DNA of 64,000 bases, from NCBI GenBank assembly GCA_016748015.1, contig JAAOMT010000009.1, forward strand, positions 700,459 to 764,458. The letters are read 5' to 3'. Source of the stretch: Geosiphon pyriformis uo1 (Eukaryota > Fungi > Glomeromycota). Under the pieces are notes generated by a model. That model saw nothing but the letters and a program-made list of their open reading frames with translations, did no database searches and was not told the origin of the DNA. Every line of letters begins with the position of its first letter. The first letter of the stretch is position 1. Of this stretch, positions 1-54,096 are shown one piece after another. A program made the position numbers and the translations under genes.

Positions 1-155
1 ATTAGTATTTATAAAATTATTTTTATTTTTATTTTTTTTTATTTTTTAATGAATCAAATACTGTCTAGTACAATACATCAAATAATTGATCTAAACTAGG
101 TATGAATCATGTATTTTTTACATATGACCAGCCACTTAAGCCAATCAGAACAACA

Positions 156-11229: not shown

Positions 11230-11750
11230 TTGAACTCTCTTTTAAATTAATTCTATCACTTTTTTTTCTAAAATTACTTGAACAATTTTGGTCTGTAATT
11301 TTTCAAATTAGACATTGGTAATTTTTCCTAATTAATTAATAGTTACTGTGTTTATTGTAATATTGTTATGTCAAATATTTATCTTGTTTTATTAATATAC
11401 AAGTTTTAAATATTAAGCTTTTGTTCTAAGTAATAATAGCAAAAGTTTCTAAAAAATTGTTGTGTTTATTATTTTCAATTTTTTTCTATTAACTTCTTAT
11501 ATAATACTATTATGTTTGATGTTTTTAATAACATCTTTATTTTTATTATCACATTATCTACTATGTTTTTAGGCTTTATATGTATTTTTTATTATATTTT
11601 GTATTGAAGTTTTGGTTTTTTTTTTGTGTTCTTGTATTATATAATTTATTAATTGATTATAATTTCCATATTCAGTTTTTGATGTCTAATAAATTAGAAT
11701 AATTGTTGAATTAAAAAATAAATATTGTCTGTAATTTCTATCTTTTTATT
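11230..11750 (-). pseudogene. ORF3 remnant of element A
   Basis: QFFRNFCYYYLEQKLNI*NL and LGKITNV*FEKLQTKI match D ORF3 (KFPINYCYYQLGKHLNIQTL; IG*LTNSQF*EL). Boundaries approximate. Confidence 0.65.
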
Positions 11751-13188: not shown

Positions 13189-15770
13189 TTAGATTTGTCT
13201 TATGTGTAACAAATTGTTAACATTTTTTTTATAATGTATAGTATAATTAAATAGTAATAATTTTTTTTTTTGCATGACAATTGTCTTCAAATTTTTGTTT
13301 TTGGATTAATGTTAATTCTTTGTGATTAATGTATACATCAAATTTTTGACTCAAGTATTCATTTTATTTTATAACAACCCAATAGATAGTTAAATGTTTT
13401 AATGTTAAAGTTTTATAGTTTTTTTTAATTAGACTTAGACTTTAGCTAAAATATGCTACTAAATGTTTTTATTTATCAGATTTTTTTGTGATAGCACTGC
13501 TTTCAATGCTTAACTTAATACATCAATAGTAATAATAAATGGCTTGCTATAATCTAAATAGATTAATATTAGAACTTGAATAAGCTTTTTTTATAATATA
13601 TTAAAAGCTTTTTGTTGGTTTTCTGTTCATTTATATATAATGTGTTTTGCTTGGAGCTGGTAGAATGATTAAGCCAGTTTGGAGAAGTTTTAAATAAAGC
13701 AGCAATAGTATTTAGCAAATTTCAAAAATATTCTTAGTTCTGTTTAGTTTATTGATACTAAAAAGTTCTTAACTATTTTAATTTTGTCTGGATCTGTTTT
13801 GATGCCATTTTTGTTTATGATATATTCAAAACTTAAGTTCAGTTTTTTTAAAAAAGCATTTGATAACATTTAATTTTAATTTAGCTCTTTTTAATTTTTC
13901 AAATACTTGTTTAAGATAATAGAGATAATTATTAAATGTTTTAAAAAACATATTGGTATTGTTTAAGTAAACTACTACTGATTTTCATAGTAATTCCTTG
14001 TAGACAATTTCTATTAGTTGTTAAAAGATAACTGGAGCATTGATTAAGCCAAAAAACATAATATTGAATTCAAAGTTTTCTTCTTTGGTGATAAATGCTG
14101 TCTTTTTTTTGTCAGCTAAATTTATGACTACTTGTCAATAATTATTATTTAAGTTCAATGTTAAAAACCATTTTTTTTCTCTAAAAACATTAAATAATTC
14201 TTGGATCTGTAAAGTTGGATAGCTGTTTTTACAAGTAATACTGTTGAGTTTTCTGTAATCTACACAAAAATAAATCTTTTCATTCTTTTTTTGAATAAGT
14301 ACTATTAGTAATGACCATAAACTTATTAATAATTGAATTAATCTATTGTCTAATATATGGTTGATTTCTTGATAAATAATCTTATAACTAGTAGGTAGTA
14401 CTTAGTATGCTATTTGTTTGATTGAAATGGCATCTCCAGTTTTAATCTGGTGCTAAATAATATTAGTTTTGTCAAATTTATTTTCACTTGCAAAGATTTT
14501 GGTAAAATTGTTAAGTAATAACTTGAATTGTATATGTTGAAGTGAATTTAAGTTTTCTAAATTCATTTGCTCCAACTATTCTGGTTGTAACAAATAGTAT
14601 TCTTTATGTTTATAAATTGTTTATAATATAAGTTTACATATTTACAAAGTTGTAAAAAATCTGAAATGGTAATTAGTGTTTGGTTCTTAACTTTAGTATT
14701 TAAGTATCTAATAGTAATTTTGCTTAGTATTTCAATTGGATTTTCAATTGTATTGTGTATTAGAATTTTAATGTGTTTATAATTTTTGGCAAATATATAA
14801 AATTAGAGATAACAATCTCTTTTGATTTACAAATAATAGGTTTTATTTCAAAAATTTGGGGTTAATTTTTTATTTTCTTCTTTATAATTAATATATACTG
14901 GTTATATAATAAAATAGAAATTGATTAATTAATAAAAATAATTTCTTTCTAATTAATGGTTTTTTTTTCTATCATATTAATTGGTATTTTTATTCTACTC
15001 ATAAATCCAAATTTTTTTATCTTTTTTGTTGTGATTTTTAACTCTTTTTTTGTTTCTACTAATACTAACTAAGCTATTTTTACCAAAAGTAGAAATATTG
15101 TCTGTGTTATCTTTTTATTTGGTTTAATAATATATGTTTTTTCTAATTTATTTTGTAGTATTGTAATAATATTTTCTATATATTCTGTATTAATTATTTC
15201 TCTTCTAATATTATTTTTGCTAAACTAGATTTAAACACTAATTAGACTATTGTTGTTGCTGAAATTTCTAGTTTTATTTTCAAATTTATGCTGATACATA
15301 AATAAAGTTTCAATCTGATAGCAGTTTTTTTTGAATATCTAAAATTAAATCTTGTATTAATATTATGTACATATTTTGGCATGATACCTTTATTATTATT
15401 ACTGAACCATTTAAGTTTCTGCTTCTTTAAAAAATCTAAGAATGCAATATATTGTTTAAAATTGTAATTAGAATTTAAATTGTTATTATTGTAGTTGCTA
15501 TTGTGAATAATATTGGAATTATTGTTGTTATTATTATCAAAATCTAAATTAAAATTAATTTTTAATTCTAATTCCAAAGTACATTTACTGATTGGTTTTT
15601 TCTTTAGGAATTGAATAAATCATGCATGCTAATGAATTGTAAATAAGGTTACAATTATCACAAAATTTAAAATTGCTGGAAATTAGGCAATATTTATAGA
15701 GTTGAGTATTTAATTGTTCTAAATATTGCTCTTATTCTTCTTAAGTATAATATTAATGCTAATTTTCTGT
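13189..15770 (-). pseudogene. pol remnant of element A: end of Cys-rich domain, dUTPase (~14995-15425), RT, RNase H
   Basis: dUTPase KGIMPKYVH..INLKIKLEI..KKFGFMS; RT FCVDYRKLNSITCK; RNase H ending LLHIRQI*. Confidence 0.82.
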
Positions 15771-15780
15771 TAAATTATAT

Positions 15781-15796
15781 CTCATAGAGAGCACTA
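15781..15796 (-). promoter_or_regulatory. Primer-binding site of element A
   Basis: rc tt-T(A)GTGCTCTCTATGAG immediately 3' of the 5' LTR; tRNA not assigned. Confidence 0.6.
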
Positions 15797-16419
15797 AATA
15801 TTACAAATAATTATTTAAAGTGTTAAAGCAAATAACAAACCCATAACTTGGTGCTCAATAGCTGTTAATAATAATAGTTTTTAAAGGTTTTAGTTAAGTT
15901 TTTATATAATAAAAAGATATTTAGTTAATAGTTTTTTCCAATTTTTGTCTTTAACATGATGATTAGTTTAATTTAGTAGTTGTGCCTTTTTGATAAACTA
16001 TTCTTAAGTTTTTTACTCTTATTTTATGAGTTTTTTACCAGACTATCTTTGATATTAATTACTTAATGCTTAATCTTTTAATTAATTAGTAAATAACAAA
16101 AAATACAAAAAAAAAAAAAAATTATTATCCCATTAATAGCCATAATTAAAAGCTATTGGTCTAATATAAAGTTCTAATATTTAGTCTAATTTAGTTTAAG
16201 TTTAATTGAATTATTAAACTAAACCAAATTTAAACAAAAAATTTGGCAAAATTTTAAACTCAAACTTAAATCAGATTTAAAATTACTGAATTTAAACTGA
16301 ATCTGAACACATACAACAAATCTGGTTTAAGTTTAGTTCAAGTTTATAAACATATTTAAGTTTGACTATTAAAAATATTATATTATATTATATTATTATT
16401 TAATTTTTTTTTAATAGTT

Positions 16420-17245: not shown

Positions 17246-17903
17246 TGTTATGGATTGAAGTAATAAGTTAACAAATAGCAAGAAAAAACATAATTGTAGA
17301 GTAATGAAAGAAATTAAAGAGAATTCAACTTTAAAGAGTAAATTAAATGAATATGGATTTAATGTGTGAGATCAGTCTCATAAAATATCTCAGTTACTAT
17401 GCTTTTCAAAAGATAACCAGGGAATTTGAAAATAGAAAAATAGTCTATAGTGTTAACAAATAATCACACACTGGTATAATTCTATGCCTTATGTCAGCAC
17501 TTTTAGAATTCAATATCAGATATCAGATGTATTCTTTAGTCACATTTTATTCAATAATCTTTAAATGCTGTAATTACACATTTCAGAAAAAAAGTAGGAA
17601 ATAACCAACAAGTAATCTTTTATCCCAAGATGTTCAAATACTTGAAGATAGAGAAAGGAAAATTAGCAATAAGAGAATAATTGAAATAAAAATTATTATT
17701 TTATTTCTTTAATTTTTACATACTTTTCTACAGCTAAGAGATTCATTGCTTATATAGCTATCAAAAATAATCAATGATTAGGTTAACGACTAGGTCATTA
17801 ATCAGGTCAATTATCACTATCTAAAAATAAAGTGGCTAATTATATGACATTAGTGGTTAATACATGTGATAATTAATAAGAAATATAGATTTCAACTATA
17901 ATA
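17246..17903 (-). repeat. 3' LTR of B1
   Basis: Direct repeat of 24200-24840. Confidence 0.93.
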
Positions 17904-18625
17904 TTATCCTTTCCAAAGAGATTGAGCTTTGGCAAAATCAAGCTATTCATGATGTAATTTATTTGAAAAGTTTTATCTAACTCAAAGCTAACTAATTTGT
18001 TGAAGTCTTTTGTGGATAGGATATATAATACTTGATGTAAAATGAGTTTTGTATCCAAGAGACCAAATCTTTGTATAAGGGTTTTGGTTTTTTTAATAAT
18101 AGTTAAAACTCTTGGGATATCTAACCATATAATGTCCAAAATTTCTGCCTATATCTCTGAAGTTGTTTTCTTCATGAGTTTCATATCCTCTATGATTTCT
18201 CTAAAGCAACTATAGAGTTCTAATTGTCTTCCATATGACAAGTTTTTGTTTATGGGTAAGATTTTTTGAAGTGTTTTTCTAATTATGCTAGAAGGTGGAA
18301 GTATAGCTGTTGTTATACCTTTCAACAAATATTTATCTATTTTGCTACCAATTTTTTTTCTTCTGGTAGTGGTTTTTTTTAGTCTAATAACAATATGTGT
18401 TCTATTGTTATCAGTTATAGTAATTTGTTTTCCAATAGTTAAAGTAGCATTTGAATAGTTTTTGATCCAATATTCATGAAGAGTATAGAAGGCATTTTGA
18501 ATGTTTTGATCCAGAAAATAATTGTTCATGTCAATTGAAAATATTTCTGTTTTGCAAATGATACATTTATTTATACTTGATTTTTGCTGATCATTTGGGT
18601 TAGTATTACCACAATAGACAACCAA
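17873..18625 (-). pseudogene. Extra ORF3 of B1 (CxxC near N-terminus), runs into the 3' LTR
   Basis: ORFs 18149-18625 and 17873-18139 are in one frame, separated by a single TAG; ~240 codons downstream of integrase. True start unclear. Confidence 0.65.
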
Positions 18626-26629: not shown

Positions 26630-27603
26630 TGTTATTAGAGGTTTTTGGTCTCTTTTCTTGAATGTTGTTACTGTTTGTCTGTTGCTAATTTCACGTTTTC
26701 TGGAAGCAATTAAACCTCCAATAACTGAATTTATTTTCAAATTATCTCCTATAATTTGAACCACTAGATTTATGAGTAAAATGGCCAATTTTATGCCAGT
26801 TACTTTGTGTAGTTACATTGTAGTAAACATTAACTCTTTCCCAGGAATTGCTCATCTGGAAGCTCACTAAAATTGTGTAGTTACTTTGCTGTAAAAGTCA
26901 ACTCTTCTACAGGAATCTCGTTTGTAGACTACCCTAATGATTGTAATAAGAAAATAAAAAAATAAAATAAAAGAAGTATAAAAAAAATAGAATTTTGTCA
27001 AGAGAAACGTTTTTTATCCAAGCCTGGAGTCACTAACAGATTACTGAAATTGGTAGCTAATTAATTTCAAAATGTTAGTCGGGTTTTGAGGAATTTCAAG
27101 TGTAATAATCAAAGATTTGGTTTTTGAATATTTAATTTTTATTTAAATGTGTAAAAGATGATTTGTTTCAATTAAGATATCTAAAGTAAGATACTATGTT
27201 ATAATACCATGAGAAGATACATTTTCTTGAAGAGAAAAGCTCTTCTTTTATACAACTTGTTGTAATACTAGTCTTTAAACTTGTACTTTTCTCTTTGCTA
27301 TAATTTGGGTAAACTAAAAATACATTTTGGCAAACTACAAGTTATTTCACTGAACTATTGATTATTTCGGCCAATTTTCATTAATTTCAGCGAATTTTGA
27401 CTATGTTAAATGGTTTAGGGTATTGTGTAATTTGATCCTTTTAATTTCTATGATACAAATCAAATTATTAATTGAGTAATAATATTTGATAATTTGATTA
27501 AATAATAAGTGATAATCGAAATAATAATAATATATGCTAATTAATAATAAGAATTATAAGGGTAATTTTATGCTAATTAATAGCTAAAATTCTACTGGTA
27601 ATA
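26630..27603 (-). repeat. 3' LTR of C
   Basis: Direct repeat of 45255-46228; internal ~69-bp duplication at ~26805-26920. Confidence 0.95.
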
Positions 27604-27618
27604 TAACCTCCTCCTCAA
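27604..27618 (-). promoter_or_regulatory. Polypurine tract of C
   Basis: rc gaggaggaggtta abuts the 3' LTR. Confidence 0.8.
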
Positions 27619-27637
27619 GACTGAGCTTTGTTAAAGT

Positions 27638-28291
27638 CTAAGCACTATTTGTGATGTCAAGATAGTAGTCCAATATAATTGAAGTAATTTGGTCTGAAAA
27701 TTGTTGAAATTTCAGTTTTGTGAGCTTTCCAATGTATTGAATCTTCATTAGATAGAGTATTGGATTTTGTAGGACGTTTTCACAAGTGTTGAATAAATTA
27801 TAGAGTCTAAATGCTGCTCTAAGTTTGTAGTGAGTGTTTGTTGGTCCAGCTGCTGTCTTGAATTCATTGTGGATTTGTTTTTGTATGACTTCAGAAGTAA
27901 GATTTGTTGTTTCAAGTTCCAGTTTTTGTTCATAAAGTGTTTTTCTAATATGAAAATATTTATAGATAAGGGTATGTTCATTGTTTTGTTCATTAAGAAG
28001 TAGTGGAAGTTTTTGTTGGATTGTGACATTGGATAAAATGTTAATAGGAGCAATTAAAAGATTTTTTTTCAGTGCTTGCTTCAAAAGTTCTGGTAATTGA
28101 TTTTTAGAGTGACCTCTTGTTTTTTTTCTATAAGAGTGATAATTTTGAGAATTGTTTACTACTAATGTTGTGGTTTCTTTCTGAGTGTAATTAATTTAAC
28201 TTTTATTAATCGTTATGGATAAGTCAAGAAGTGTTTTTAAGGCTAACATTAATTTTTGGAATATTTGTTGAATATTTCGGGGAATAATCAT
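27638..28291 (-). pseudogene. ORF3 of C (unknown function, ~217 aa, one internal stop)
   Basis: MIIPRNIQQIFQKLMLALK...KLRAAFRLYNLFNTCENVLQNP..IGKLTKLKFQQF; similar along its length to D ORF3. Confidence 0.8.
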
Positions 28292-29873: not shown

Positions 29874-32778
29874 TTAATCTTGTCTCATTCTTAAGAGGCT
29901 ATCAATATTGGTGTGTAGTTTTTCTGGTTTGTGGTATACAATATATTTGTAGTCTGCTAGAAAGTCATTCTATCAAGACTGTTTGGCACTTTGTTTGGTT
30001 TTCTTTTTATTGAGTTATTTAAAACTAATATTGTTAGTTATAATGTTAAATTCTTTTTCATTCTTCAGGTATTGTTGAAAATGTTTAATAGTCCAAATAA
30101 CTGCAGCAGCTTCTAATTTAGTTGAGTTATATTTGAGTTCTGTTGGTTTGAGTGTCCTACTGATATAGACAATGACTTGTTCTTGGCCATTTTTATCTAA
30201 TTGTGATAAGATGGCACCAAAAGCTATGTGTGATGTATTGGTGGTTAGTTGGAACCATTTGTTGAAGTCTGAGTAAACAAGAACTGAAGCTGTTGTTAAT
30301 TTTGTTTTGAAAGTTTTAAAAGCTTTTTGTTGTTTTTCAGTCTATTGATATGGCATGTTTTTGTTGATAAGATAATTAAGTGGTTTGGCAATTTTCAAGA
30401 ATTCTTTTATGAATTTTCAATAGTAAGAGGCTAATTCTACAAATCCTCATAGCTTGATAGTATTTTTGGAAGTTTGAAAGTTTTTGACAACACTGATTGT
30501 TCCTGAATTTGGTTTGACTCCATTTTTATTAACTATGTGTCCAAGAAAGATTAAGCTTGTTTTTCTAAAATGACATTTTTCAATGTTTAACTTCAATTCT
30601 GTTTTCCATAATCATTGAAAAAATTTTTGCAAATAGATAAGATGGGCTTTAAAGCTTGGTGAGTATATATTAGTGTCATCAAGATAGACAACTACTGATT
30701 GCTATAAAAGTCCTTCATATATAATATCCATAAGTTATTAGAATGTTGCTGGTGTATTACAAAGTCCAAAAGACATAAAATTGAACTCATAGTTTCCTTT
30801 TTGAGTGGTAAATGCTGTTTTAGGTTGATCTTTTGGGTTCATTTCGACTTGCCAGTATTCACTTTCCAAGTCTAAAGTTGAGAAAAACTTGGCTTTGCCT
30901 AAAGCATCTAGCATGTCATCAATTCTTGAAAGAGGATAGGCATCTCTAATTGTTATACTGTTTAGTTGGTAATAGTCAACACAAAATCTGATTTTTCTAT
31001 TTTTCTTTTTGATAAGAATTACTGGTAAGACCCATAGACTTTTTGATAGTTGAATCAATTCATTATTGAGCATTCTTTGAACTTCTTCCCTAATGAATTG
31101 GTGGCTAGCAGGTGGCACTTGATAAGCTTGTTAACATTTTGGTGAAGCATCTTCTGTATGGATCTAATGTTAAACAATATTAGTTTTTCTAAGATTATTG
31201 TTGTCTTTTGCAAATATGTTAGCGAATTCAGCTATTAGCTGTTTCAATTGTCTTTGTTGTTAAGATTCTAAGAGACCTATGTTGATTCAAAAGAGTTTTT
31301 CTTCTAAAAAGTAGTAGTTTTCAGTAGTAAGGATAATGTTTAGATTTGGAAGTAAGGTATGTCCTATAATTTCGATGAAATTAGAAACAATTTGAGGGTT
31401 TTTATCATGGAAGATATTGCTATGTATGATTCCAATTTCTAATTTATTCAATAAGACAATAGAGTAATTATTGGAGTTGTAGAATGTAACTTGAAATTTT
31501 TTCATTCTTTTGAGAATATAAACATTTGGGATTGAGATTTTATGTTTTAAACAGATTTGTTCATTGGATTCAAAGATTTGTTGGGTAGTGGTGAGTTCTG
31601 AGCAAGTGTAAATTTCGTAATATTCTCCAAAAGGTAAAATAATAATTGGTTGGGGAAGTTGAAGAATCTGGTGCAATTTATTTTGTGTATTAAGAGCTAT
31701 GTTTACTGGAACTGTAAATCGTTCAGTTGAACTAAAACCTTGAGTTTCTTTTTCACTTTTTTCCAATTGTTCTCTGTTTTTAACTGATTGTAAACCCGAA
31801 ATGTTGATTAAGGGTAGGTAAATTGCTTAAGCAATCTTTTCAGCATGTTTAATTCTGAATGGTTTTTTAGTTTCATTTTGTAGTATGACAGTGATGTCTC
31901 CAGTATATCCTACATCTATAACTCTTCCTCTGATGTTAATTCCTTTGCTTGCCAATAATGATTGGAAAGCAATTTGTACTATTGCTCCTAATGGTATTTC
32001 AAAAACAATTCTAAGGTTGATTTTGGTTAAGAATTTTGGTTAAAGAACCAAAGTGTTTTTGCCAGAATATCTGAGGTTATATCTTGTATCAATTTCATAG
32101 ACTTTTTTTGGTTTTATTCTTTGTTTATTGTTGTCAAAGTATTTGAGTTGTATAGTAGGCTGGTTTTTAGTAAGATAAATTGGTGTTGTTATAATTTCTT
32201 CTTTTGTTTCTAGTTTCCCAAATTCAATTTTCTTCTGGTCATTTTTACTGGACAGAGAAATACTAAGAGCATAGCATTCTGAATACCATTTGTCATTACA
32301 AAACATGATGTATTCTTTACACAATTAAATATTTATTTGCTCTAATTTTTGAATTTAAGCTTCTTGGATTGGGTATGTGTGGCTTGCAATTTGGTAGTAT
32401 GTCTCTATTTCATCTTTATAGTTGAATTCAGCTAATTTTATTGTGTATTCAATGTACTCAGCTTTCTTTATTTGTTAGACATTTTCTTGTGTGGCTCCAT
32501 TAATTAAAGCTATTGCTAAATCAAAAATCATTTCAGCATTATGAGAATAGTGGTAAAGTTTGTTAAAAGCACTATTGTATATTATATCAAAAGATGTTCT
32601 TTTTTTAACTTTTTTCGAAATTGATAAGACATATTGACAGGTTTGGTCACATACTTCCCCTCTTATTGCAACATCAATCCAGTTGCATTCTTCTGGTAGT
32701 ATATCTCCACATGTAAGACAAGAAGTGTTGTCCTATTTTCCACTTCTTTTGAAATATTCAAATCATTTTTTATGGCAT
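29874..32778 (-). pseudogene. C pol 3' part: Cys-rich domain, dUTPase (~31726-32150), dUTPase-like domain, RT, RNase H
   Basis: GINIRGRVIDVGYTGDITVILQN, EKIA*, QGFSST; RT IRFCVDYYQLN..YLDD; ends LLRMRQD*. Confidence 0.9.
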
Positions 32779-33653
32779 TGTTATGGGATGGTTTTCTTGT
32801 TATATTTAATTGCTGATATCCCGTTTTAATTGCAATCAGTCTTTCGTGAATTCCTCAATTCTATTTGTGTGATAATGTCACTGTTATACTGAAGACTTTC
32901 TTTTAATATTGCAATGTAAGTTATTCTTCAATTCCTGATTGTTGTGTGTGTTTATGTACTTCTTCTCAGAGGCTAAACTGAAATCTACCCACTGTCTGGG
33001 GTCTTTTCTGAGGCTATCCTTGCAATTGCCTGATGTGTTTTTCTAATCTAGAAACACAGAATGTTAATGGTCTTTAGTGCTTTTTCTAATTCTTACAATA
33101 AAGCTTTTATCAATTAGTAACAATGTGAATAATCTTGATCAAGGATTATTCTTCCAAGAGATTCAGTTGATGAATGATAGTTTCATTTAATAAATAATAC
33201 AAGTAAGTTTCTTAATACTTTGGGTTGTGATAATTCAGTTTTAAATATTTTTTTTTATTTCTTTTTGATTTAAAGATTTCTTGGGATATTTAATTTGAAA
33301 GTATGATTTAAAGTGGAGTTTGTTGAATAAAATTGGATCTATTGCTTGATAAGTTATGATTTTTATTACTTGATTGTTTTTTTCCCAATATTAAAACTAC
33401 TATATATATACATGTTTGTAGTTCTACGAGAAAACACATTGTAATACTTTTTTTTTGATATTTCAATCTGGTATTTGCTGCTATCACCAGTTGGTGTTGA
33501 CTGCTATTGTGAACTGGTGCTTGCCACTATTGCGAGATGGTGTTTGCTACTATGTTAATTATTATTTTTCTAAGATTATTACTGTGCTATATTATGATTG
33601 AATAGTTTGTATTATTTTTATGATTCTTTTTGCTAAATTCTTAAACCATAACA
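32779..33653 (-). repeat. 3' LTR of D
   Basis: Direct repeat of 41623-42497; four ~23-bp U3 units at ~33468-33555. Confidence 0.96.
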
Positions 33654-33668
33654 ATATCTCCTCTTTTC
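33654..33668 (-). promoter_or_regulatory. Polypurine tract of D
   Basis: rc gaaaagaggagatat abuts the LTR. Confidence 0.8.
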
Positions 33669-34335
33669 AAAATTGAGCTCCGTCAAAATTGAAGTTAATT
33701 TCTTCATTAAATTCTAAATTACTATAGTGGTTCAATACTGTGTTATTAATTTGTTGTTGTAATTCTTAAAATTGCGAATTGGTAAGTCATCCAATACTGT
33801 TAATTGTTATTATGTTCATGGTTGGGTTCAACAATAATTTGTAACAGTTTTCAAATGCTTTGAAAATTCTGTAAACTGTTTTTGAATGGAATGTAGTGTT
33901 GGTTTTTCCAATGAAAGGTTCTAATAGTTGGATAGTTGTTTTGTCAAACACTCTAGTTGAGTCTTTTGAGTATAATGTTTGTATGTTTAAGTGTTTTCCT
34001 AGTTGATAATAACAGTAATTAATTGGAAATTTCGTTTTCAAGTTGCTAAATGTGTCTGGTGTTAATTCACTTATTTCTATTTCTTCCATTATTAATGTAT
34101 TGCCCAATGCTATCTCTAATTTTTTAATAACTTTGCTAATAAATTTGTTGTTATATTTGGCAATATTATATGGTTCGAAATTATGTTCTTTTCTTGTTTT
34201 TGGATTTTCTATTGTTCTTTTTATGTATGTTATCTTGGAGCTATTAACTGTGATTTCCAGATCGGATTTTAATTGTTGTAAGCTTTCAACTAATTGTTGA
34301 GTTATATTGTTGATGTTTTCTAGAATAAGTATCAT
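33667..34335 (-). pseudogene. ORF3 of D (unknown function, ~222 aa, two late stops)
   Basis: ORF 33787-34335 continues in frame as LTNSQF*ELQQQINNTVLNHY; homologous to C, A and E ORF3. Confidence 0.82.
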
Positions 34336-34419: not shown

Positions 34420-35799
34420 TTATCTTTTTGAATAATGTTCAATTAAAACTATTGGTTCTAAATCTTGTGGAATTTGTTCTGGTAGAATTAAAGGTAATTG
34501 TGTTCCAATTCTGGGTGTTTTTGTTGTTATTACTGGTTTACTGTAATAGAATTTCAGCTGGTTACCATGTGCTGCTTTTCTTAATATTTTATCATTTAGT
34601 CTTAGCTTGTATGCTCTATTTCCAAGTATTTTGTGAATATAAAATGGTCTATCCCACTTGTGATCAAATTTTCCATTCCACTGTTTTTCCATTTTTGTAT
34701 GATGCAACAATACTTTATCTCCAATTTTGTAGTTAATTATATTATCTGGTAACTGGTTATCATGTCTCACTTTTTGTTGTTCTTGTGATTGTTCAATATT
34801 TTGTGCTGCTTTTCTTCTTTTGTTTTCTAAAGTTCCCATTAATTTGTATGTTCTTCTAAGTAGTGTTTCCTAGAATGTTGCTTCCATGATAGTGTCACTT
34901 AGATAAGTTGGGATAGTAAGTTCAACTGGTAATGTGGCTTTTCTTTCATAAACTAGTTCAAACAGTGTGAATTGTATAGTATCTTGTTTTACTGTTCTAT
35001 ATGCTAGTAGTACTGTTGGTATGAACAAATCCCATTCTTTTTCATGTTCATTACTAATTTTTGCCAGTGATTCACATAATGTGCAATTAAATCTTTCAAC
35101 TAATTCATTTGTTTGAGGGTGGTATGGTGATGACAGTGGTCGCTTGATTTCAAATTTTTGGCTAAGTTCTTTTAAGGTGCTGTTTACAAAGTGTGTGCCT
35201 TGATCTGATAGCAATTCTTGTGGACATCTATGTTGGCAAATTAAGTCTTCATGTATGAATTGAGCTACGGAAATAGCATCAGCTGTTTTAATAGCTCTAG
35301 CTTCTGGCCATTTGGTGAGATAGTCTATGACTACTGCAATATAATGGTTGTTTCTTGTTGTTATTGATAAGGATCCAACTAAATCAATTCCAATTCTGTC
35401 AAATGGCTGTCCCATTTTTATTGGTCTTAATAATTCCATTGTTTTTGCTCCTCCTCTTCATTGGCATAGGTCACAATTTCTTATGTATTGGATTATGTCT
35501 GAACTCATTTTTGGCCAATAGTAACGGCTAGTTGCACATTGAATGGTTGCTGTTTTTCCAAAGTGGCCTGAATGAATATTTAAGTGCATGTTAAATAAGA
35601 TAGTTTCTTTTTTATCTGTAGTTATAATTCTTAATGGATTATCTGGATTTTGTCAATTCCAGTAATAAAGTATGTAATTTTGGATGAAATAGTGTTTTGC
35701 TAATTTTTGGAGCTTAATTAGCTCTTTTACTGGCATTTCTTTGTCTATTTGTAGTGTTTCCAAGTATTGGCTGAGGTTTTTGTAAAGGTGGTTGTTCAT
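34420..35799 (-). pseudogene. Integrase ORF of D (zinc-binding domain, rve core, SH3-like tail; no chromodomain)
   Basis: ATG 35799 MNNHLYKNLSQY; HSGH..CDLC; IGID..LLSDQGTHF..PYHPQTNELVERFN; in a different frame from RT-RNase H. Confidence 0.92.
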
Positions 35800-35828
35800 T
35801 GTTGTTGTGGTGGGTGGGTTGGTGATTT

Positions 35829-38800
35829 TTATGTGTATCTTATTCTTGACAAACAGTTAGCATTAGCATTTTTGGTATCTTCTTTGTATTTGATAATATA
35901 ATTGTATGGTGCTAACATTTGTGACCATCTGGCATATTTTCTTTTTAATGCTTTCTTGTTATTTAACCAGATCAGACCTCTATAATCTGTTATAATATTA
36001 AAGAGTTGGTACCGTAAATATGTGTCAAAGTAAACACAACTCCAGACTACTGCTAAGCATTCAAGTTCATATGCTGCATAGTTTTGTTCTGCCATACTGA
36101 GACTTCTGCTGGCATAAGCGATTACACGTTCTCTTCTATTATCATCTTTTTGTGACAGAATGGCTCCAAGTCCAGTTCCAGAGGCATCTGTGACCAAAAT
36201 GAATTTCTTGTTGAAATTCAGATAGATTATTATTGGTAATTTAATGAGCTTTCATCTAAGGTACTCAAAAGCTTTTTGTTGTGTTTCAGTTTATTCAAAC
36301 TTTACATTTTTAGATAGTAAGTAATTAAGGGGTTTGGTGATGTTTGAAAAGTTTTCTACAAAGTGGTGGTAGTAAGATGCAAGTCTTAAAAAGCTTCTAA
36401 CTTCTGAAATGTTTCAAGGTACTGGAAAATTTTTCACTTTGTCTATTTTTGATGGATCTGGTTTTATTCCATTTTTTCCAACTACATGTCTTAAAAATGC
36501 TAGCTCATTTTTCCCAAAGAAACATTTTTTTAGATTTAGTTTAAGTCCAGCATGTCTCAATCTCTCAAAAACTTGTTGTAAATGTTGGAGATGATCCGTG
36601 AATTTTGACGAGAAAACATTTGTATTATCCAAGTAGACAACAACGGATTGCTACAGGATTCTGAAGTAAATTACGTCCATTAGTCTTTGAAATGTCACGG
36701 GAGTGTTTGTTAATCCAAATGGCATTACATTGAACTCATAATTGCCATTTTGTGTTGTGAATGCTGTTTTATGCCTGTCCTTTGGGTCCATTTCTACTTG
36801 TCAGTACCCACTGGTCAAGTTCAGTATAGAAAACCATTTTGCTCCTCCAAAAACGTCGAAGATTTTTTCAATTAACGGTATTGGGTATGAGTCTTTGGTT
36901 GTTTTGCTGTTTAGTTTGCGATAGTTGATGCAAAATCTAATTTTTCTGTTCTTTTTCCTTACTAAAACAACTGGTGAGGACCATGGGCTCATTGATGATT
37001 GTATTATTCCTTTTTCCAACATGCTTTGGATTTCTTCTCTGATAAAATTATGTTTCATTAGTGAGACATGGTAAGCATGTTGTTTTTTAGGTCTGGCATC
37101 TCCAGTGGGGATTTGGTGTTGAACCAAGTTGGTTCTTTCAAATTCGCTATTTTATGAAAATATATCAGAGTATTTTAAAATTAATGCTTTTAATTGTTGC
37201 TTTTGGTCAGGATCCATTGTTCCAATGTTTAATTTGGCCAATTCTTCTGGCGTAAATTGATAGCATTCTAACAGTTGTTGCCAATTTATTGAAGTGAGTT
37301 CACAGTAGAGGGTGATTTCTGGGAAATTTAGAATTTCTTGTGGTGTTGACGCATTTTCTAGCTCTGTTCTGAGGTATCCAATAATGGTATCTTCCAGAAT
37401 GTAGACGGGTTCTTCTGTGGTGTTTGCGATAGGAATTTTTATCCATTGAGCTTTATCAGCTGGAATAAAAAGGTTAGTAAGTCCTATAAGAAACTGTTGG
37501 CAAGTTTTTGGGTAAGGCTCAAATATTAGGTCTTTTTTTTTAATTGTCCTTTTTATTCTTATTTCTGATTTTCCATATGGTAGGAGTGTGATGGACTGCT
37601 TATTTTTAATTACTTTACCTTTTTCCTCTATTGTTTCAGCGAAATTTGCTTCAATTCTTTTTCTTGTCAATCCGAAACCAAAAGTTCTTCTTGTTGTTTG
37701 TGACAATTCTTCATGATTTTCCACTGGCATAAATTTCCCAATTTTTACCAATGGTAGAAAAATTGCTTATGCAATTTTTTCCTTAGATTCAATGGTATAA
37801 GGCTTTTCTGAATTGTTCTGTAGCAAAACCATCAAATTTCCAGTGTATCTGGAGTCAATTACTCCTCCTTGAATGCTTATTTTTTTTTTCATGAGACTTG
37901 ATCGTGACGCTATTTGAACCATTATTCCTGGCAGAATTTCAACTGCTATTTTTAGGTCGATTTTGGTGATGCTTCTGAGTGGTAACATTGTGGATTGGTT
38001 TTCTGGATAACATAGATCGAATTCGGCATCGGTTGGATGGGCTCTTTCAGGTATTATTCCTAAGTGCCCATTGTCGAAGTATCGGATGTCGGTCACCTGT
38101 TCTAGGTCAGTATAGGCTACAAATTTTTCTGACTCAGGACCGTCAGGTGAGTCTTGTTGATTTATTAATTGATTTTGAGACTGCTGATTCTCAATTTCCA
38201 TTTTTTTTTCTAAGCCCCTTTCATCTTGACACTCTTCACAGCACTGATTTTGGCATGGGATGAGACAGTTTTCGCAGAGATAAGTGTTGATTTGGGTGAA
38301 GTATTGTTCTTGCTCTTGTCGAGTGGGGCATAGTTGTTGGTAGTAGTCCTGGAATTCGTCCACTGGATCAAACATGTTGTAGCTGGTGACTTCGTCAGCT
38401 ACTTCGGCTGACTTTTTCCAATGTCGTATTTCTTCAGCAGTTCCTTCTCTTATTTTGGCTTGTGCAGTGTTGTACAACTTGTCCTTATTGTGTGAGTAGT
38501 GCTGTAGTCTTTTTAATGCTCTGTTGAATGCTGCTTCGAATAGCATTCTTCCTCTTACCCAGTCACAGATGAGGATTGTGTATTGGCAAGTTGTGTCACA
38601 CATTCTTCCTCTGTCTGATATGTCATTCCAGTCGCACCCTCTTGGTAACGGTTCTCCACAAGCAAGGCACAGTTCCTCGTCCCATTTTCCATGTCTTTCT
38701 GGGTAACTGTATTTTTTTTTGTTACAATGGTTACAATAGTAATGGGTGGAGTTTCTTGGGTCTTTGTTTGGTGCACTGCACGCAGTCATAGACGAGAGTT

Positions 38801-41540
38801 TTTTCTTGCAAACTGAGCATTCTAGCTTTGGTCTGCGTCACTGGTGGTTTCTTTGTGAACTTACCTGGTTTCATTCGGATCTTTCTTCGCTGGTCCACAT
38901 TGGTACGGCTGGTAGTCTTGTTCTTTGGTCATCAGCCCAAGAAAACTGATAGGTTTCGATGGCTGGTAGTGCTAGATTTTTCTCAAATTTGAAGGTAGGT
39001 TTTTGGTTGGCACTGGGTTTTTGGAAGTAGTCACAGATGGCTGGAATTTTGGCCTGGTGGCTATTATAATTGATCAGAAGCTCTTGAGTAGTCCAGTCTA
39101 GAGTGGCATTGGCTTTTGTTAGCCAGTCATTCCCTACTAACGCTTAATATTGTGTAGCATCCATTACTAATATTTTTGTAGGTATTACTATGCCATTAAT
39201 TTCGAAAGGGAATGAGTCGATTTCACCATGAGACAGCTTTGTACTTCCATTGGCTGTTATGATTTGGGATGTCGCAGCACAATCAACTTTGAAACCCAGT
39301 TGGTTTACTAGTTGAAGCGTTATGATGCTTCCAGCGGATCTGCTGTCTAAGATAAGTTTGATTGGAGTATTGTTTACAGTGGCTTCCGTATACATAGCAG
39401 TGATTGGGCATTTTTCGTCCAATGCTGCTCCACTAAACATAGCCTCATTTTCCTCTAATTCAAAAGAAAAAATAGCTGCAAGGCTGCTATCTTCAGTGGC
39501 AACTGTTGGTGGTATTGTCTGGTTCAATTTGTTGGAAGAATTCTTGGTTTTGTTTATGTTTCTACTATCATTATTTCTGATGATTAGATTTTCTGGTATA
39601 TTAAGGTAAGTTTGTTGATAATTTTGGTAGTTTGAATTGGTTTGCTGATTGGTTTTGGCACAGTTTGGATTCCTCTGGACCAACGCGTTCTGGTTCTACA
39701 TGGGCTGATTTCAGGCCTTGGGATGCCAATTTGGGTTGGCTATCATGGGCTGTTGCTGGTAAGCTCCTTGATTTTAATACGTGGTGGAATATTGGTGTGG
39801 TATTGGCGTGTACTGGTTTCTAAGCATTTGGGGTGGTGTGTAGTAATTATTTTCATGTGCTTCTTGCATCATTCGCATTCGACATTGACTAATCAAATGT
39901 CCTATGCATTTGCAAAAATGGCAGGTGCGCGTTTTTGTTCTGAATTTCTGGCGTGATGAGCGATTATTTTGACTGTCACTAACTTCCTGGCTGCATCTTT
40001 GGAGTGGTTGGTATGTATTTCTTCTCGGATCCAGGATGAGGTAACTTTCTATTTTCTTAGAGAATTCCTCCCCTAATTGTATTACTCTTTTCTCTAATGT
40101 TTCTGTCTTATTTTCCTTCATTATCATGTTAACTATTTAACTATGGTTAGCTTTTTTCTCAGCTGATTCAAGGGCTCTGGCAAGTGTAATGGCTTCTAGT
40201 AAGGAATTAGGGTGGGCAGGGCGTACTCTTTCTAAAATGCTGCTTTTTAATTCTCTAATAAACTGATTTAAAACCTAAGGATCAGTGTAGTATCCTTGTT
40301 TAATCACTTCAATCTGATGGCAAATTCGATTGAATCGAGCAAGGTATTGGGTAACAGTTTCACTGGTATTTTGCTTGATAGTATTGAATTCATTTTGTAG
40401 TTAGATTATGGCGTTTGGGTCGCTAAAATACTCCAGGAGTGCATTTTTAAATTTGGTGAAGCTCGTGGATTTTGTTTCCAGGCTTTGATACCACAAGTCG
40501 GCTGTGCCTTTCAGGAAGAAAGGTAATATTTGAATTGCTCTTTGGTTGTTCCAGTTATTTGTCTGGATGGCTTTTTGTGCTTCTCTGAGCCATGTGTGCA
40601 TGTCCATTTCTTCTTTCTCTCCTGAGAAATCTGTTAGTCTTGTAATGTATGGTGTGGTCATTTCATTGCCATTTTTTGCTGGTGGGCTTATTGGTCTAAG
40701 AGGAGGTGAGATGATATTTCTTTAAGCATTCCTAAAGATGGCTTCCCTTATATCCAGTTCTTTTTCTTGATCATGAGTTTTTTGGTTTCTGGATTGGCTG
40801 CTTGTTTCAGTGACTGGTCTTGTGATTGTTTTTTCGCTGGTCTTTTTTTCAGATTCCGATTCAGACTCCTCTTCACAGTTTTCAAACCCCATTCTAAATT
40901 TTGGCTGAAAAAGAGGGTTTTGGAATAGTGATAAATATCCTCCTGTAATTGGTATGTCTCCCCAGTTATGTTGTTTAATTTTATCAGTATAATTAGAAGT
41001 TCTTGGCATTTGTGGAGTTGATGTTAATGATGATGCAGCTTCTAATAGAATTTGTATCTTATTTTCTGGTGAAAAATGGTATGATTTATCTTCTGGTGAA
41101 TAAATACGTTGTTTCTTTATTGATTAAGTGACAGTTTTCTTTGGTGTTTGAGCTAGTGTTCCTAGTTTTTGCTGGTTACTTTTCCGATTAGTTTTTAAAT
41201 TTTTTTTGGTTTTGTTGATGCATTTTTTAGTGTTTCCTGTGGATATTGGAAAATTTTCGTTGGCGTATTGCTCAATTTCTTGATGGATTTTGACAATAGT
41301 TGCGGCTATTACTGTTACTTCTTTTGTAGTGTATTGTGATAATTCTCTATACAATCCAAGTTTTGCATCATGTGGTTCTTCTTCCTTTCCTATATGATAA
41401 TTTATTCTGGCGTTGATATAATAAGTGAGGGCAGATTCTGCTGGACAACACCCTTCTGATAATCCAAGATTACTTTGATTTTGTGTGTAAATAGCACAGC
41501 AGAATTCAAGAACAGTAAGATTAGGGGTTTTTGTCATCAC
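35829..41540 (-). pseudogene. Single-frame gag-protease-Cys domain-dUTPase-RT-RNase H polyprotein of D
   Basis: ORF pieces starting at 41540, 41009, 40661, 40127, 39683, 38789, 37751, 37127, 36632 and 36197 share one frame. Knuckle CHFCKCIGHLISQC, protease LILDSRSAGS, RT YLDN, RNase H TDASGTGLGAIL. Confidence 0.93.
37665..38087 (-). pseudogene. dut: dUTPase domain within D pol
   Basis: All five trimeric dUTPase motifs recognisable: DAEFDL, IASRSS, GGVIDSRYTG, KIA*(Q), RRTFGFGLT. Confidence 0.92.
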
Positions 41541-41604
41541 TTTTGTCTCTTCCTTTTTAGCAATGAATTATTGCTAATTATTATTTCTTTTTTGATTTTC
41601 TTTT

Positions 41605-41620
41605 CTCATAGGGTTCACCA
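41605..41620 (-). promoter_or_regulatory. Primer-binding site of D (possibly tRNA-Trp)
   Basis: tt-TGGTGAACCCTATGAG next to the 5' LTR; the tRNA identity is a tentative recollection of Trp 3' ends. Confidence 0.7.
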
Positions 41621-41622
41621 AA

Positions 41623-42497
41623 TGTTACGGGATGGTTTTCTTGTTATATTTAATTGCTGATATCCCATTTTAATTACAATCAGTCTTTCGTGAGTTCCTC
41701 AATTCTATTTGTGTGATAATATTACTGTTATACTGAAGGCTTTCTTTTAATGTTGTGATATAAGTTATTTTTCAATTCCTGATTGTTGTGTGTGTTTATG
41801 TACTCCTTCTCAGAGGCTAAACTGAAATCTACCCACTGTCTGGGGTCTTTTCTGAGGCTATCCTTGCAATTGCCTGATGTGTTTCTCTAATCTAGAAACA
41901 CAGAATGTTAATGGTCTTTAGCGCTTTTTCTAATTCTTACAATAAAGCTTTTATCAATTAGTAACAACGTGAATAATCTTGATCAAGGATTATTCTTCCA
42001 AAAGATTCAGTTGATGAATGATAGTTTCATTCAATAAATAATACAAGTAAGTTTCTTAATACTCTGGGTTGTGATAATTCAGTTTTAAATATTCTTTTTT
42101 ATTTCTTTTTAATTTAAAGATTTCTTGGGATATTTAATTTGAAAGTATGATTTAAAGTGGAGTTTGTTGAATAAAATTGGATCTATTGCTTGATAAGTTA
42201 TGATTTTTATTACTTGATTGTTTTTTTCCTAATATTAAAACTACTGTATATATACATGTTTGTAGTTCTACGAGAAAACACATTGTAATATTTTCTTTTT
42301 GATATTTCAACCTGGTGTTTGCTGCTATCACCAGTTGGTGTTGGCTGCTATTGTAAACTGGTGCTTGCCACTATTACAAGATGGTGTTTGCTACTATGTT
42401 AATCATTACCTTTCTAAGATTATTACTGCGCTATATTATGATTGAATAGTTTGTATTATTTTTATGATTCTTTTTGCTAAATTCTTAAACCATAACA
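41623..42497 (-). repeat. 5' LTR of D
   Basis: tgttacgg...cataaca; direct repeat of 32779-33653. Confidence 0.96.
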
Positions 42498-49409: not shown

Positions 49410-51463
49410 ATATAACAACAAACTGTTATTAGTCATTAATGAATTTAAAGTTAAAAACAAAGTTTTTTTATATAAAACTAAAGCTAAAAATAATAAAATA
49501 AAAAATTTAATTATAAATAAAATATATTATTTTATATATATGAAATTTTAAAAAATAGATTATATAAATTAAAACTTAATAATAAAGTTTTGAAAAAATT
49601 GCACATAATAATAAATTTAAGTACTATTATTCCAAAACTAATCTTAAATACTTAATTCTACAACTTAATATACAATTTATTTTAGTTAATTCTAAAAATA
49701 TTTTTCAAAACTTAAAACCAATAATTGTTATTAAACAATTTTTAAATCTAAATATTTAATAATTAAATTATTTTATTTTACTTTTATATTAGTAGAAATA
49801 ATTTTATAAAAATAATTAAAAATTATACAAAAAAGTAAAACAAAAATAATTTTATTTTTTTATATTTTCATTAGTTATTATGATTATTTACTAAAATATT
49901 TAATATTTATTTCAAAAATTAATGTTAATCTTAAAAACACTATCTAAATTATTTATAATTATTACTAAAAAACATATTAATTATATTTAGATAAAATTTG
50001 TTACAATTTTAATATAAATTTACAAAATTATTTTTCTTATAAAAGAAACACAAAAAATTATTCTGGAATTTACTTACCAAAATTTTTAAAACAAGTTTAG
50101 AAAAAAATTTAATATTTATTTTTATTAATATTTTACTAAATACTACAATTCAACAAAAATTTTAATAATGTCTTAATAAACAAAACAACAAATATTTTTT
50201 AATTTATAAATATTTTTATATTAGAAAAACACTTTACAAAAGAAAACTAGAGTTTAAAACAGCAAATTTTATATTTAAAGCTATTCAAAACCAATTTTAC
50301 AATAAATTCAAAACAACAACTAAACCAATAAACACTTATTACAAACCTAGAACAGCTTTTAAACTTTATAATCTATTTTATACTTGTAAAAATGTTCTAT
50401 AAAATCTAATTTTACAAATTTTAAAGATTTAATATATTGAAAAGCTTATAGAATTAAAATTTTAATAATTTTCAGACCAAATTTCTTCAATAATTCTGAA
50501 CTATTATTTAGAAATTACAGACAATATTTAAACTTTAATAGAGCTTAGTTTTAAAAAAAAAATTATATTATTAGCCAAAATTTAAAATATTAATTAATAT
50601 ATATTATTATTTCAATTTATTACTTTTTATTTTATTAATTATTTGAATTATTATTTAATTAATAATTTAATTTATACAGAATACAAATATAACCAAATTA
50701 TAATGATCAGATTATATAATAAACTAAATTATATAACATTAAAAATTTGCTAAAATATTTAATAATTCAATAAAATAATTAACAATTTACTAAAATAATT
50801 TATAGTTTATAGAAATAACTTGTAATTTAATAAAATATTAGGAAAAAAATGTTAAATCATAGAATAGTACTATAATAAATTATATAAAAAAAGAACTTTT
50901 TATTTCAAAAAAATATATTTTAATTAGAATTACTTAAATTAAACTAGAGATATATTTTTTATAAATTAATTTAAATAAAAACTTATATTAAAAAACATAT
51001 ATTTTTTAATTAATATTATTTTAAAATTGATTAATTACTAATTTTTGTAATAGTTAATAATTTTCAAATCTGAATTTAAAACAACTTCTTTAAAACATTC
51101 TTTTATTTTTTTTCTTTAATTTATATTTTTATATTTTTTTATATTATTAAGTAGCCTATAATTAAGATTTTTTATAAAAAAATTAACTTTTACAACAAAA
51201 TAACTATACAAATTTTTGAAAAGCTTACAAACAAAATTTTTTTGTAAAAAAGTTGATTTTTACTACAAAATAACTACACAAATAATTGATATAGAATTGT
51301 TTATTTTATTATAAATTTAATAATATACATAATTTAAAGTATAGAAAAATACTTTAGAAAAAAAATTAGCTTATTAAAAATTTATCAACTTTTATTAACA
51401 GCAGAATTAACAACAAAATAATATTAAAACATCAAGAAAAAAGTAGAAAAATTTTTAATAACA
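49410..51463 (+). mobile_element. Gypsy E 3' part: integrase tail, ORF3 (~49880-50530), decayed PPT, 3' LTR (~50567-51463)
   Basis: Colinear with the reverse complement of C 28790-26630, with most G/C replaced by A/T. Confidence 0.8.
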
Positions 51464-54096
51464 ATAACTATTATAATATTAATACCTAAAAAACTTGAAT
51501 TTAATCTTAAAATAAATACTCTTATATTATTAAATCTGTTAATAATCTAAGATTTAATACTAAAATAAAGCTTAGTTTTTGTAATAATCAAAATATTATT
51601 ATTTATTTTTTATACTACTTAATAATATTATTTTGTTTAACAAAAATATTTATGTTTTTAATATTATATATAGCTATTTTTTAGATTAAACTACTTATAA
51701 AAAATAAAAATATATATTAAATTATTATTTAAGCAAAATAAATTAAATTTATTCAAAACTGTTTGACTAATTTTTCTAAAACCAACAATTTTATTTTCAG
51801 ATTACTAATTTTAGATATTAAAATCTTTGAAATATTTGTAAACAATTAAAAAAATTTTATTTTTTATTTTTAATATAATTGAAAAAATTAATAATAGTTT
51901 GTTAATAATTATATCTAAAATTGAAAGTATTAAAATTTATTTTTATATACTTTTTTAGCTATTAGTTAATAAAAAATAAAAGAAAAAAAGTTTAATTTAT
52001 AAATAATTACCAATATTTAATTTGTAAAAAGCACTAAAAAATATACAAACATAAATTCAAAATCATAGTTATAATACTATTATTCAGAATATTATTGCTA
52101 CTGCTTATTATTAAAAAGCCAAAAATAAAAACATAAAATGAAATAAAATTTGTTTTATTAATTACTAACACCCAAGTTTTATTTTTAAAAAAAACTGAAA
52201 GAAAAACTAATTTGTTTTTTAGTATATATATATACTAGATACTATTTATTAGAATTAGAAAAAAAAAATTTACTATAATTATATACTTTTTTATCAACTA
52301 TATATTTATTTAAAACATGACCAAAATATTTATACATAGAGTATTATAATAATATAAGTTCAATTTAATATAAGTTTATGTTTTTGTAAATTAGTATTAA
52401 ACAAATAATAGTATTTTTAACCAAGACTAAATTGAAACATATTATTGTACATAGAACATAAACATATATAAATATATTATATATTATAATATAAGTTTTT
52501 TTATTATATAATATTAACAAATTTAAGAGATTATAAACTATAATTCTAATAAAAATATATATAAAAAAACACAATATTAATTTTTTATATTCTATATTTG
52601 TTTATTAACATTTATTTTAACTATTTATATTAAGTCTTTTTTTAATAGAATTAATTATTTGACCACTACTAAATTAACAATAATAATGTTTTTAAACTTA
52701 ATTAGTATTTTCTGTTATAAACCAATAAATTGTATTTTAATTAATTTTACTATATTATATTTAGCTAGTACTAATTTTAATGCCAATTAAGATATTTTTA
52801 ATGATTATTTTTAATCTGTTTTGGTATTAGTGTATTTAAATCAGTATTTACTATAATTTTTATATTAGCAGTCAACTTATTAGCTTAATTAAGATTAAAT
52901 TTAAATATAAATAACAATTTTATAATTTCATAAAATTTTAAAAAAGTTGAAATAATTTTAAAACTGTCTACTTGATAAAACAATTTTTTGATAAATTTTA
53001 ACTTATTACTTAAATTTTTTTTTAAAATAACTAATATATTTACATTAAAAACAAATAATTTAATTAAATTAAAACTCTTATTTTGTTTATTATTTTTAAT
53101 ATTTACAACTAATAAAAAAAGATTTAAATCTTTATTATTATTTATATAATTAATAACAAATACAAATAATAAATTAGTCAACTTATATATAGTAATTTTA
53201 ATGTAATATAATATTACATAATTCATATTTTTATTATTTTTTAAGATATTTGAATTAATAAAATAGGTTTTTTTAATGATTAAATTATTTATATTGCTTA
53301 TTTTGTTTTTTTAAAATTAACATAGAAATCAAAGAATATAAAATAAAAAAACTGTTATAAATTTTTTATACTTATTGTAATAGAAAAATTTATGAAAAAA
53401 AATTTTTATTATTATTTTATAAGTTTTTTAACATAAATTACATGATTATTTTAACATTTATTAATTTAAATAGTTTATTAAATACTAAAATTTAATTAAT
53501 TTATAAATAAGTCAATAAAAATTATTAAAGTTTAATTTAAATAAAACTAATATATAAGTTAATAAACTAAGTTTAAAAAACTTTTTTGGTTAAAATTTTA
53601 AATATTATAATTTAGTTTAAAAATTACAAGTATAAAAAAGATTTAAATAACATATAAAATTTGTTAAAAAGTATTTTATTATAATCAAATAACAAATTTT
53701 TTTTAAAATTAAATTAAAAAATTAAATTACAATGTAAATAAAATATTTAAAAAGTTAAAATTAAATTAAAAAAACTATTTTCTATACTAATAATAAATAT
53801 ATAAATATTTTTATAATTAATAAGAATTATAATATTTATACTATTTAAAAAAAATTTAAAAAAAGTTTTAAAAATATTTGGTCATAAATAATAATATTAT
53901 TTTGAATTTTGTTAAAATTAAATTAAAAATCAATAAATTTATGATAAAATAAACATAAAAATACAAAAATTTTTTTTCTCTTGTCAATCCCCTAACCATG
54001 ACGAGAGCAAAATTTTATCAAAGTTTTAATTAGTCTTTCTTTTTTTCTCTTGTTTTTTTTCTAATTATTTCTTCTGACTTTCTTCTTTTTGTTACT

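Follow-up and report, generated by a model that had tools for sequence, protein, structure and literature searches.

A selected, uncatalogued accessory gene between integrase and the polypurine tract in diverged LTR retrotransposon families of Geosiphon pyriformis

Introduction

LTR elements account for 41.2% of the genome of Geosiphon pyriformis (PMC11952901), and several of them appear to carry an extra open reading frame, ORF3, between the integrase and the polypurine tract (PPT), the position of env in retroviruses. What is this reading frame, and what might it do? Non-env ORF3s that follow pol are known from the LTR retrotransposons of bdelloid rotifers (PMC5408684). Among fungal Gypsy elements, a dUTPase between protease (PR) and reverse transcriptase (RT) has been described in PosPlaTy3-5, and a figure legend gives an "add. 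ORF" of unknown function for some element (PMC2864245). Our literature search found no account of the present ORF3 family; the Geosiphon genome papers lay outside that search, and the supplements to PMC2864245 could bear on priority. We examined the four copies of ORF3 in a 64-kb stretch of G. pyriformis DNA (the window) together with their relatives in sequence collections, and conclude that ORF3 is a real, selected and uncatalogued accessory gene common to diverged element families.

Results

Element architecture

The window is an AT-rich nest of Ty3/Gypsy LTR retrotransposons with close matches in G. pyriformis. Element D is complete, with LTRs, gag, protease, dUTPase, RT, RNase H (RH), integrase (IN), ORF3 and PPT (Table 1), and sits within element C, whose LTRs are 93.5% identical and flanked by the target duplication GCAT. 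The order gag-PR-RT-RH-IN, which places them in Ty3/Gypsy, is found in D, C and B, and RT-RH-IN in A and in the metagenome contig L001; D and C each possess a TG...CA LTR pair, target duplication, primer-binding site (PBS) and PPT. Pfam searches found no chromodomain at the C-terminus of the D integrase, where SH3_Tf2-1 alone was matched on 34420-34869, followed by the stop. The 4-bp target duplication GCAT/ATGC is common to D (32775-32778/42498-42501) and C (26626-26629/46229-46232) and matches 0.4% of positions in the window, which hints that integration is sequence-specific (n=2). Element A seemingly lacks gag and protease (15457-16124), its dUTPase following directly after a PBS-like site at ~15797, and its 5' LTR was matched over only ~330 nt. 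Positions 1-8000 and 54000-61000 hold two decayed copies of another element in opposite orientation, 67-72% identical; this element looks LINE-like, and similar gene models have RT and RNase H matches.

Table 1. Positions of element features in the window, of predicted segments of the ORF3 protein model, and metagenome ORF3 proteins
Feature	Position	Strand	Remarks
D 3' LTR	32779..33653	-	TG...CA; 96% identical to D 5' LTR; 4-bp target duplication ATGC
Cis motif GAGCTCAAT and D PPT	33654..33682	-	overlaps last D ORF3 codons
D ORF3	33667..34335	-	ATG, 222 codons, TGA; ends 14 nt before 3' LTR
D integrase	34420..35829	-	rve, Tf2-like SH3; own stop 84 nt ahead of ORF3
D RT and RNase H	35829..37766	-	
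D dUTPase	37767..38057	-	between protease and RT; counterparts in C and A, none in B
D gag and aspartyl protease	39144..41567	-	
D 5' LTR	41623..42497	-	PBS-like TTTGGTG next
C dUTPase	31830-32100		between protease and RT
A dUTPase	15215-15457		between protease and RT
C ORF3 (C1 subfamily)	27587..28291	-	235 codons, stops at 32 and 218; frame continues across PPT into 3' LTR
E ORF3 (C2-like subfamily)	49880..50594	+	three frames at start; 8 stops in last 183 codons
A ORF3	11230..11747	-	11 stops in 131 codons, frameshift, internal deletion
B ORF after integrase	17880..18529	-	218-aa family; possible remote ORF3 member
Segments skipped in X2/X3 contigs	38992-39156, 40198-40280, 40520-40636, 41077-41230, 41514-41612	+	not in DNA run X1
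Predicted N-terminal alpha-beta-beta module	residues 7-38		helix 7-21, strands 25-29 and 34-38
Predicted basic disordered linker	residues 40-51		then helix 52-66
Predicted core helices	residues 82-213		82-95, 100-119, 126-141, 146-160, 164-168, 177-182, 185-213; pLDDT 79-96
Metagenome protein P0275			234 aa
Metagenome protein P0279			230 aa; second member P0302
Metagenome protein P0294			partial

ORF3 copies in the window

A separate ORF3 of 220-239 codons lies between the integrase stop and the PPT in D, C, E and A, confirming the position originally proposed for it in these four elements. One boundary required correction: the end given for the C copy, 27638, is only a premature stop, and the frame reaches 27587. 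The spacer from the integrase stop to the ORF3 ATG measures 84 nt in D and 140 nt in C, and ORF3 shares the integrase frame in D, behind one TAA, but not in C or A. Because it starts after the integrase stop, and out of the integrase frame in these two elements, ORF3 is a separate gene; the stop, the spacers and the differing frames rule out a decayed extension of integrase.

Each of the four copies in the window is a pseudogene, a point that the original prediction overlooked; stop-free paralogues are numerous. The D copy has premature stops at codons 183 and 190, where the paralogues P0001 and P0011 have R and Q, and over codons 1-182 it is 96% identical to the G. pyriformis gene model P0001; all seven matches in the D search were to this species. 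An open frame of at least 182 codons arose in none of 2000 base shuffles of the D ORF3 stretch. The A copy has lost about 30 profile positions, including the R.Y..F..C..L.NP part. The shared motif of the original prediction needs correction in detail: "NP" is not general, the cysteine is kept in 6 of 10 sequences, and part of the motif is missing from A.

Homology and range of the ORF3 family

Homology between the D and C copies was evident from hhalign (97%, E 7.8e-11, 190 columns), and D and A were linked by a score of z=14 that was reached in 0 of 300 shuffles. C and A taken alone fall below significance; the A copy was recovered by a family HMM built without it (E 1e-18 and 5e-8). The claim that the four elements represent three families with unrelated LTRs holds between families, with the refinement that C and E are sister subfamilies of a single family: the ORF3s of C and E are 57% identical and their LTRs 66.6% over 935 nt, and the ORF3s of the two subfamilies (235 and 239 aa) are 66% identical. 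Across families, ORF3 retains 25-35% identity and integrase 52-65%, and the LTRs are unrelated.

A profile of C, D and E retrieved 235 clusters at E<=0.1, of which the 120 listed were all from G. pyriformis. A HMMER search of 1.84 billion representatives yielded 60 matches at E<=0.001, which bring in A-, F- and G-type groups beside D, C1 and C2, so that the family spans six or more groups in Geosiphon. Twenty of the 60 were looked up, comprising 17 G. pyriformis and three metagenome proteins, and a further seven were Geosiphon matches already known; named fungi other than Geosiphon were absent from these 27 of the 60 with identity established. L001, the contig that encodes the metagenome protein P0279, carries RT-RH-IN, a 313-nt spacer, an intact ORF3, a PPT and an LTR start TGTTAC, and its integrase core is 63-65% identical to those of D and C, its ORF3 25-30%. 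The pol region of this contig (L001:1-2139) has three in-frame stops, with the ORF3 downstream unbroken. The closest Atlas cluster consists of 98 Mucoromycota hypothetical proteins (0.94, 176/256 features). In many gene models, pieces of ORF3 are joined to parts of gag, pol or LINEs, which is what annotated transposon remains should look like. Scanning metagenome and viral contigs for patterns with alignment A3 found no match, and tblastn against phages found no ORF3 match.

Element B has a similar layout without the dUTPase and carries an ORF of its own after integrase (Table 1), which the original prediction likewise missed. In one search, 113 of 114 new matches were of this B type, all in G. 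pyriformis. The B ORF shows a collinear 27% match to P0279 (z 4-7, 0/300 shuffles in 7 of 8 tests) and no signal against P0275 or C2, and by hhalign and HMM its similarity to ORF3 did not rise above shuffles.

Selection and overlap with cis sequences

ORF3 is clearly under purifying selection as a protein. Differences between paired LTRs are nearly all transitions (35/35 and 60/63); as decay after insertion is almost entirely of this kind, transversions were counted in the nucleotide alignment of C and E, the single pair that forms the main test. Transversions affect 20 of 444 0-fold sites versus 13 of 79 4-fold sites, a ratio of 0.27 (p=4e-4) that is far from the value of 1 expected of an unselected frame and bears out the selection originally proposed. 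The constraint is stronger in codons 101-235 (0.18) than in codons 1-100 (0.38), and second positions in the core half show 0 of 135 transversions. As controls, the integrase end gave 0.21, LTR offsets gave 1.0, 2.4 and 0.9 (matching offset 1.0), and the other five frames of C versus E gave 0.8-4.5, none significant. The signal was weak for D versus C (0.65, p=0.047) and absent for D versus A (0.97), two alignments that are gappy and near saturation.

The motif GAGCTCAAT that adjoins the D PPT is also found in C, E, A, B and L001, in decayed form in E and A. The last 8-20 codons of ORF3 lie over this motif and the PPT, and read DFDGAQF/Y-stop in D, A, F and G, and ELSLEEEIML in C and the metagenome copies. 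The ORF3 tail, which overlaps cis sequences common to all elements, is conserved as DNA. This overlap in two frames, and the broken state of every window copy, might suggest that the whole ORF arises incidentally from conserved cis sequence or from AT-rich composition and is not selected as a protein. Such a reading is scarcely credible, as the frame-specific selection rules it out for codons 1-200, and the shuffles of D and the conservation of ORF3 across families and outside Geosiphon records also speak against it.

Membrane test and predicted structure

The 19-residue mean hydropathy maximum is 0.3-1.4 across representatives, and no C-terminal transmembrane anchor was detected (maximum KD19 <= 1.4). 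Examined for a signal peptide by hydropathy alone, the N-termini are amphipathic, with an 11-residue maximum of 1.4 or less in 8/8. No Pfam profile of env or fusion protein families was matched, cysteines number 0-2, and the pI is 7-9 in intact copies. Lacking a transmembrane stretch, ORF3 is therefore not an Env. AlphaFold2, run with 25 sequences and P0279 first, modelled the metagenome homologue rather than D (pLDDT 78.6, pTM 0.64). The prediction comprises an N-terminal module, a basic linker and a helical core (Table 1), and together with the hydropathy maxima it favours the soluble, mostly helical and non-Env protein that had been proposed. A degenerate Env or membrane protein is very improbable: its position, and nothing else, favours it, against the low hydropathy, the amphipathic N-termini, the scarcity of cysteines and the soluble two-module model.

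Conserved residues in the core are Y102, G108, L111, N145, A152, R155, L156, Y157, F160 and L167, and conservation clusters in Y.[YF][YF].IG..L, a G-K-T-N turn and A..RLY..F. The linker has a net charge of +3 to +6 in 6/6 proteins; that of the core is only 0 to +6, which speaks against DNA binding. The ORF3 alignment contains no conserved acidic or His/Cys set suggestive of catalysis.

Family and fold searches

No Pfam family scored over its cut-off on the ORF3 region, and PDB sequence searches with ORF3 returned zero matches and one chance match; in these two collections, then, no characterised retroelement domain was recognised in ORF3. A first model (pLDDT 45) gave no usable fold match. With the confident model, Foldseek found nothing at E<=0.001 in PDB or BFVD, and with VIA-align no chain among 48,161 or among 986 reached Z>=5, the N-terminal module being barely covered. 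The absent fold matches are evidence for neither a new nor a different fold.

Below these thresholds, Spo0J (1vz0; Z 3.9, rmsd 5.4, 93 aligned) and KorB (1r71; Z 3.6, rmsd 5.2, 94 aligned) overlap model residues 78-207, ranking 5th and 12th and tied with unrelated helical proteins. DUF1016_N (PF17761) was detected on the core in 3 of 20 proteins at E 0.04-0.12 and 12.9-14.6 bits, below the cut-off of 32.8 bits. Profile comparison of the core with DUF1016_N scored 17.5 versus a maximum of 17.2 in 30 shuffles (hhalign ~1%), and another run with ORF3 gave 18.0 versus 16.3 in 60 shuffles. The comparison with ParB HTH (PF17762) gave 11.4 versus 10.4 +/- 1.6 for shuffles (hhalign 0.2%). The alignments used, of 28 ParB HTH sequences and 38 YhcG N-termini, match one another at 91% (E 9e-7), and the best local alignments, with scores within or at the top of the shuffles, match ORF3 helix 146-160 to its counterpart in each of the two.

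In the Atlas, the best named match was Closter_coat (0.93 for the whole protein, 0.92 for the core), and neighbours of the core included a RegA-type repressor (0.90), DUF3102 (0.88), HTH_3 (0.87) and DUF6192 (range 0.87-0.92). Scans of 27 and 25 members gave no Pfam match to Closter_coat (PF01785). ORF3 can be assigned to none of the ParB, DUF1016_N, closterovirus coat, RegA, DUF3102 and HTH_3 families.

Transcript contigs

Two sequencing runs, X2 and X3, are labelled "RNA? (probably DNA)" and "DNA?", and X1 is a DNA run. We read X2 and X3 as RNA because GT..AG joints are found there and are absent from X1. Their contigs, the strand and level of which are indeterminable, cover ORF3 in D (33412-34166 and 33727-34047) and C (27611-27932) and the corresponding ORF in B (18038-18264), and they cover pieces of pol as well. 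The spliced contigs are antisense to D. On the plus strand, contigs at 38383-41748 and 32882-33696 skip five GT..AG segments with canonical donors (Table 1), and a multi-intron antisense transcript across the D dUTPase, protease, gag and PBS is likely. An X3 contig joining 33696 to 35475 reflects a deletion, present as DNA in X1, that removes ORF3 together with most of integrase.

NCBI models P0001 and P0008-P0017 splice the D ORF3 from several donors into one LTR-derived exon. We doubt these models because an X2 contig runs unspliced through the proposed donor; they are likely to be prediction artefacts, and rare forms could escape notice. No splice acceptor or TATA box common to all elements was found ahead of ORF3.

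Discussion

The ORF3 core probably binds nucleic acid, DNA and RNA taken together. The leads that point this way are concordant on the helical core and include the Spo0J/KorB folds, DUF1016_N, the ParB/DUF1016_N alignments and the Atlas neighbours RegA, DUF3102 and HTH_3, with the caveat that every homology lead is below significance. The nucleic-acid binding suggested in the original prediction is thus weakly favoured by agreement among HTH-like leads of which none reaches significance. Like ORF3, the HTH domain of ParB/Spo0J/KorB and DUF1016_N (the YhcG N-terminus) are helical and of comparable size, and they share a G-K-[ST] turn with an R-L helix after it, with a low-Z overlap over the whole ORF3 core. 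In contrast, the helix has 2-4 additional residues in ORF3, no profile or fold score is significant, and ORF3 has no attached ParB CTPase or PD-(D/E)XK domain.

A more specific role, as a family-specific DNA-binding regulator of the LTR of its own element, is the mechanism that we find likeliest, and we propose it tentatively. The helical core would bind DNA through a helix-turn-helix in which helices 126-141 and 146-160 surround the G-K-T-N turn; the protein, translated from a spliced or sub-genomic transcript, would work in trans as a family-specific activator or anti-silencing factor, with the LTR of its own element as the presumed target. Unrelated LTRs and a drifting ORF3 beside a stable integrase are what one would expect of a protein that changes in step with its binding site. 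We chose this mechanism because of its analogy with VANC of the Arabidopsis VANDAL transposons, an accessory protein that binds the non-coding sequence of its own family (PMC5735166, PMC10398659), and because transposable elements in the related fungus Rhizophagus are CG-methylated and produce small RNAs (10.1101/2021.03.30.436303). VANC is a functional analogue that differs in belonging to a DNA transposon of a plant host, in having no sequence match to ORF3 and in that its activity has been demonstrated (PMC5735166, PMC10398659). In element D, the observed/expected ratio of CG is 0.37.

Soluble accessory genes beside or overlapping the PPT and 3' LTR also include foamy virus Tas/Bel1, which activates its own LTR, and lentiviral Nef, both from vertebrate retroviruses that possess an env. 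Their placement resembles that of ORF3, and no sequence relation was found.

RNA binding is no less plausible than DNA binding, since the best named Atlas match is a coat protein and RegA is an RNA binder. Within the multinucleate hypha, ORF3 could coat or escort virus-like particles or the genomic RNA, or it could protect RNA against RNAi, in keeping with the Closter_coat and RegA translation repressor matches, the basic linker and the env position. We regard this alternative as doubtful: Closter_coat shares 150-156 of 256 features with ORF3, under the level typical of true family members, is found in one of the ten best Atlas matches, is rated probably wrong by the tool itself and, as noted above, has no Pfam counterpart among the scanned members.

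It is also conceivable, if unlikely, that ORF3 serves the element by other means, for instance as a host-protein-binding suppressor or addiction factor, and resembles HTH proteins by chance. The nucleic-acid-binding leads all lie within or at the edge of their shuffle controls and conservation falls mostly on hydrophobic positions of the core, as such a reading would have it, but four separate weak leads fall on the same helices, and no residue set hints at catalysis.

The D integrase ends without a chromodomain match, D ORF3 follows it in frame behind one TAA, and both elements with readable flanks share the target GCAT/ATGC, which raises the question of an integration-targeting factor or integrase cofactor that replaces the missing chromodomain. 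We consider this quite unlikely. The integrase stop is at an equivalent place in D, C and A; with the different frame of ORF3 in C and A and the 313-nt spacer of L001, a read-through fusion is therefore not general. The target evidence is limited to n=2, and target preference in Ty3/Gypsy elements is usually determined by integrase itself.

Among the closest parallels in overall organization are the bdelloid elements, which likewise have an extra ORF after pol, a dUTPase in pol and family-specific ORF3s, some of 210-230 aa (PMC5408684). Unlike ORF3, the bdelloid proteins described there include a GDSL esterase, a DEDDy exonuclease, coiled-coil and transmembrane proteins and a paramyxovirus-type env, and none of these matched the Geosiphon ORF3. 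The fungal elements of PMC2864245 belong to a description of chromodomain elements from asco-, basidio- and chytridiomycetes.

Conclusions

Taken at its fullest, the proposal would have ORF3 supply a helical domain distantly related to the bacterial ParB/DUF1016 HTH that co-evolves with the LTR against silencing, mark an undescribed "complex" lineage of fungal LTR retrotransposons, and explain in part the ~41% LTR content of Geosiphon; we put this combination forward with considerable doubt. ORF3 has been annotated hundreds of times merely as a host "hypothetical protein", often fused to pol fragments, and it draws attention to a class of spurious host genes in the annotation. It is also carried by elements from organisms beyond Geosiphon, as the metagenome copies show. 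As an expressible protein of 230 residues, ORF3 is a candidate for a silencing counter-measure or for movement in multinucleate mycorrhizal-type fungi.
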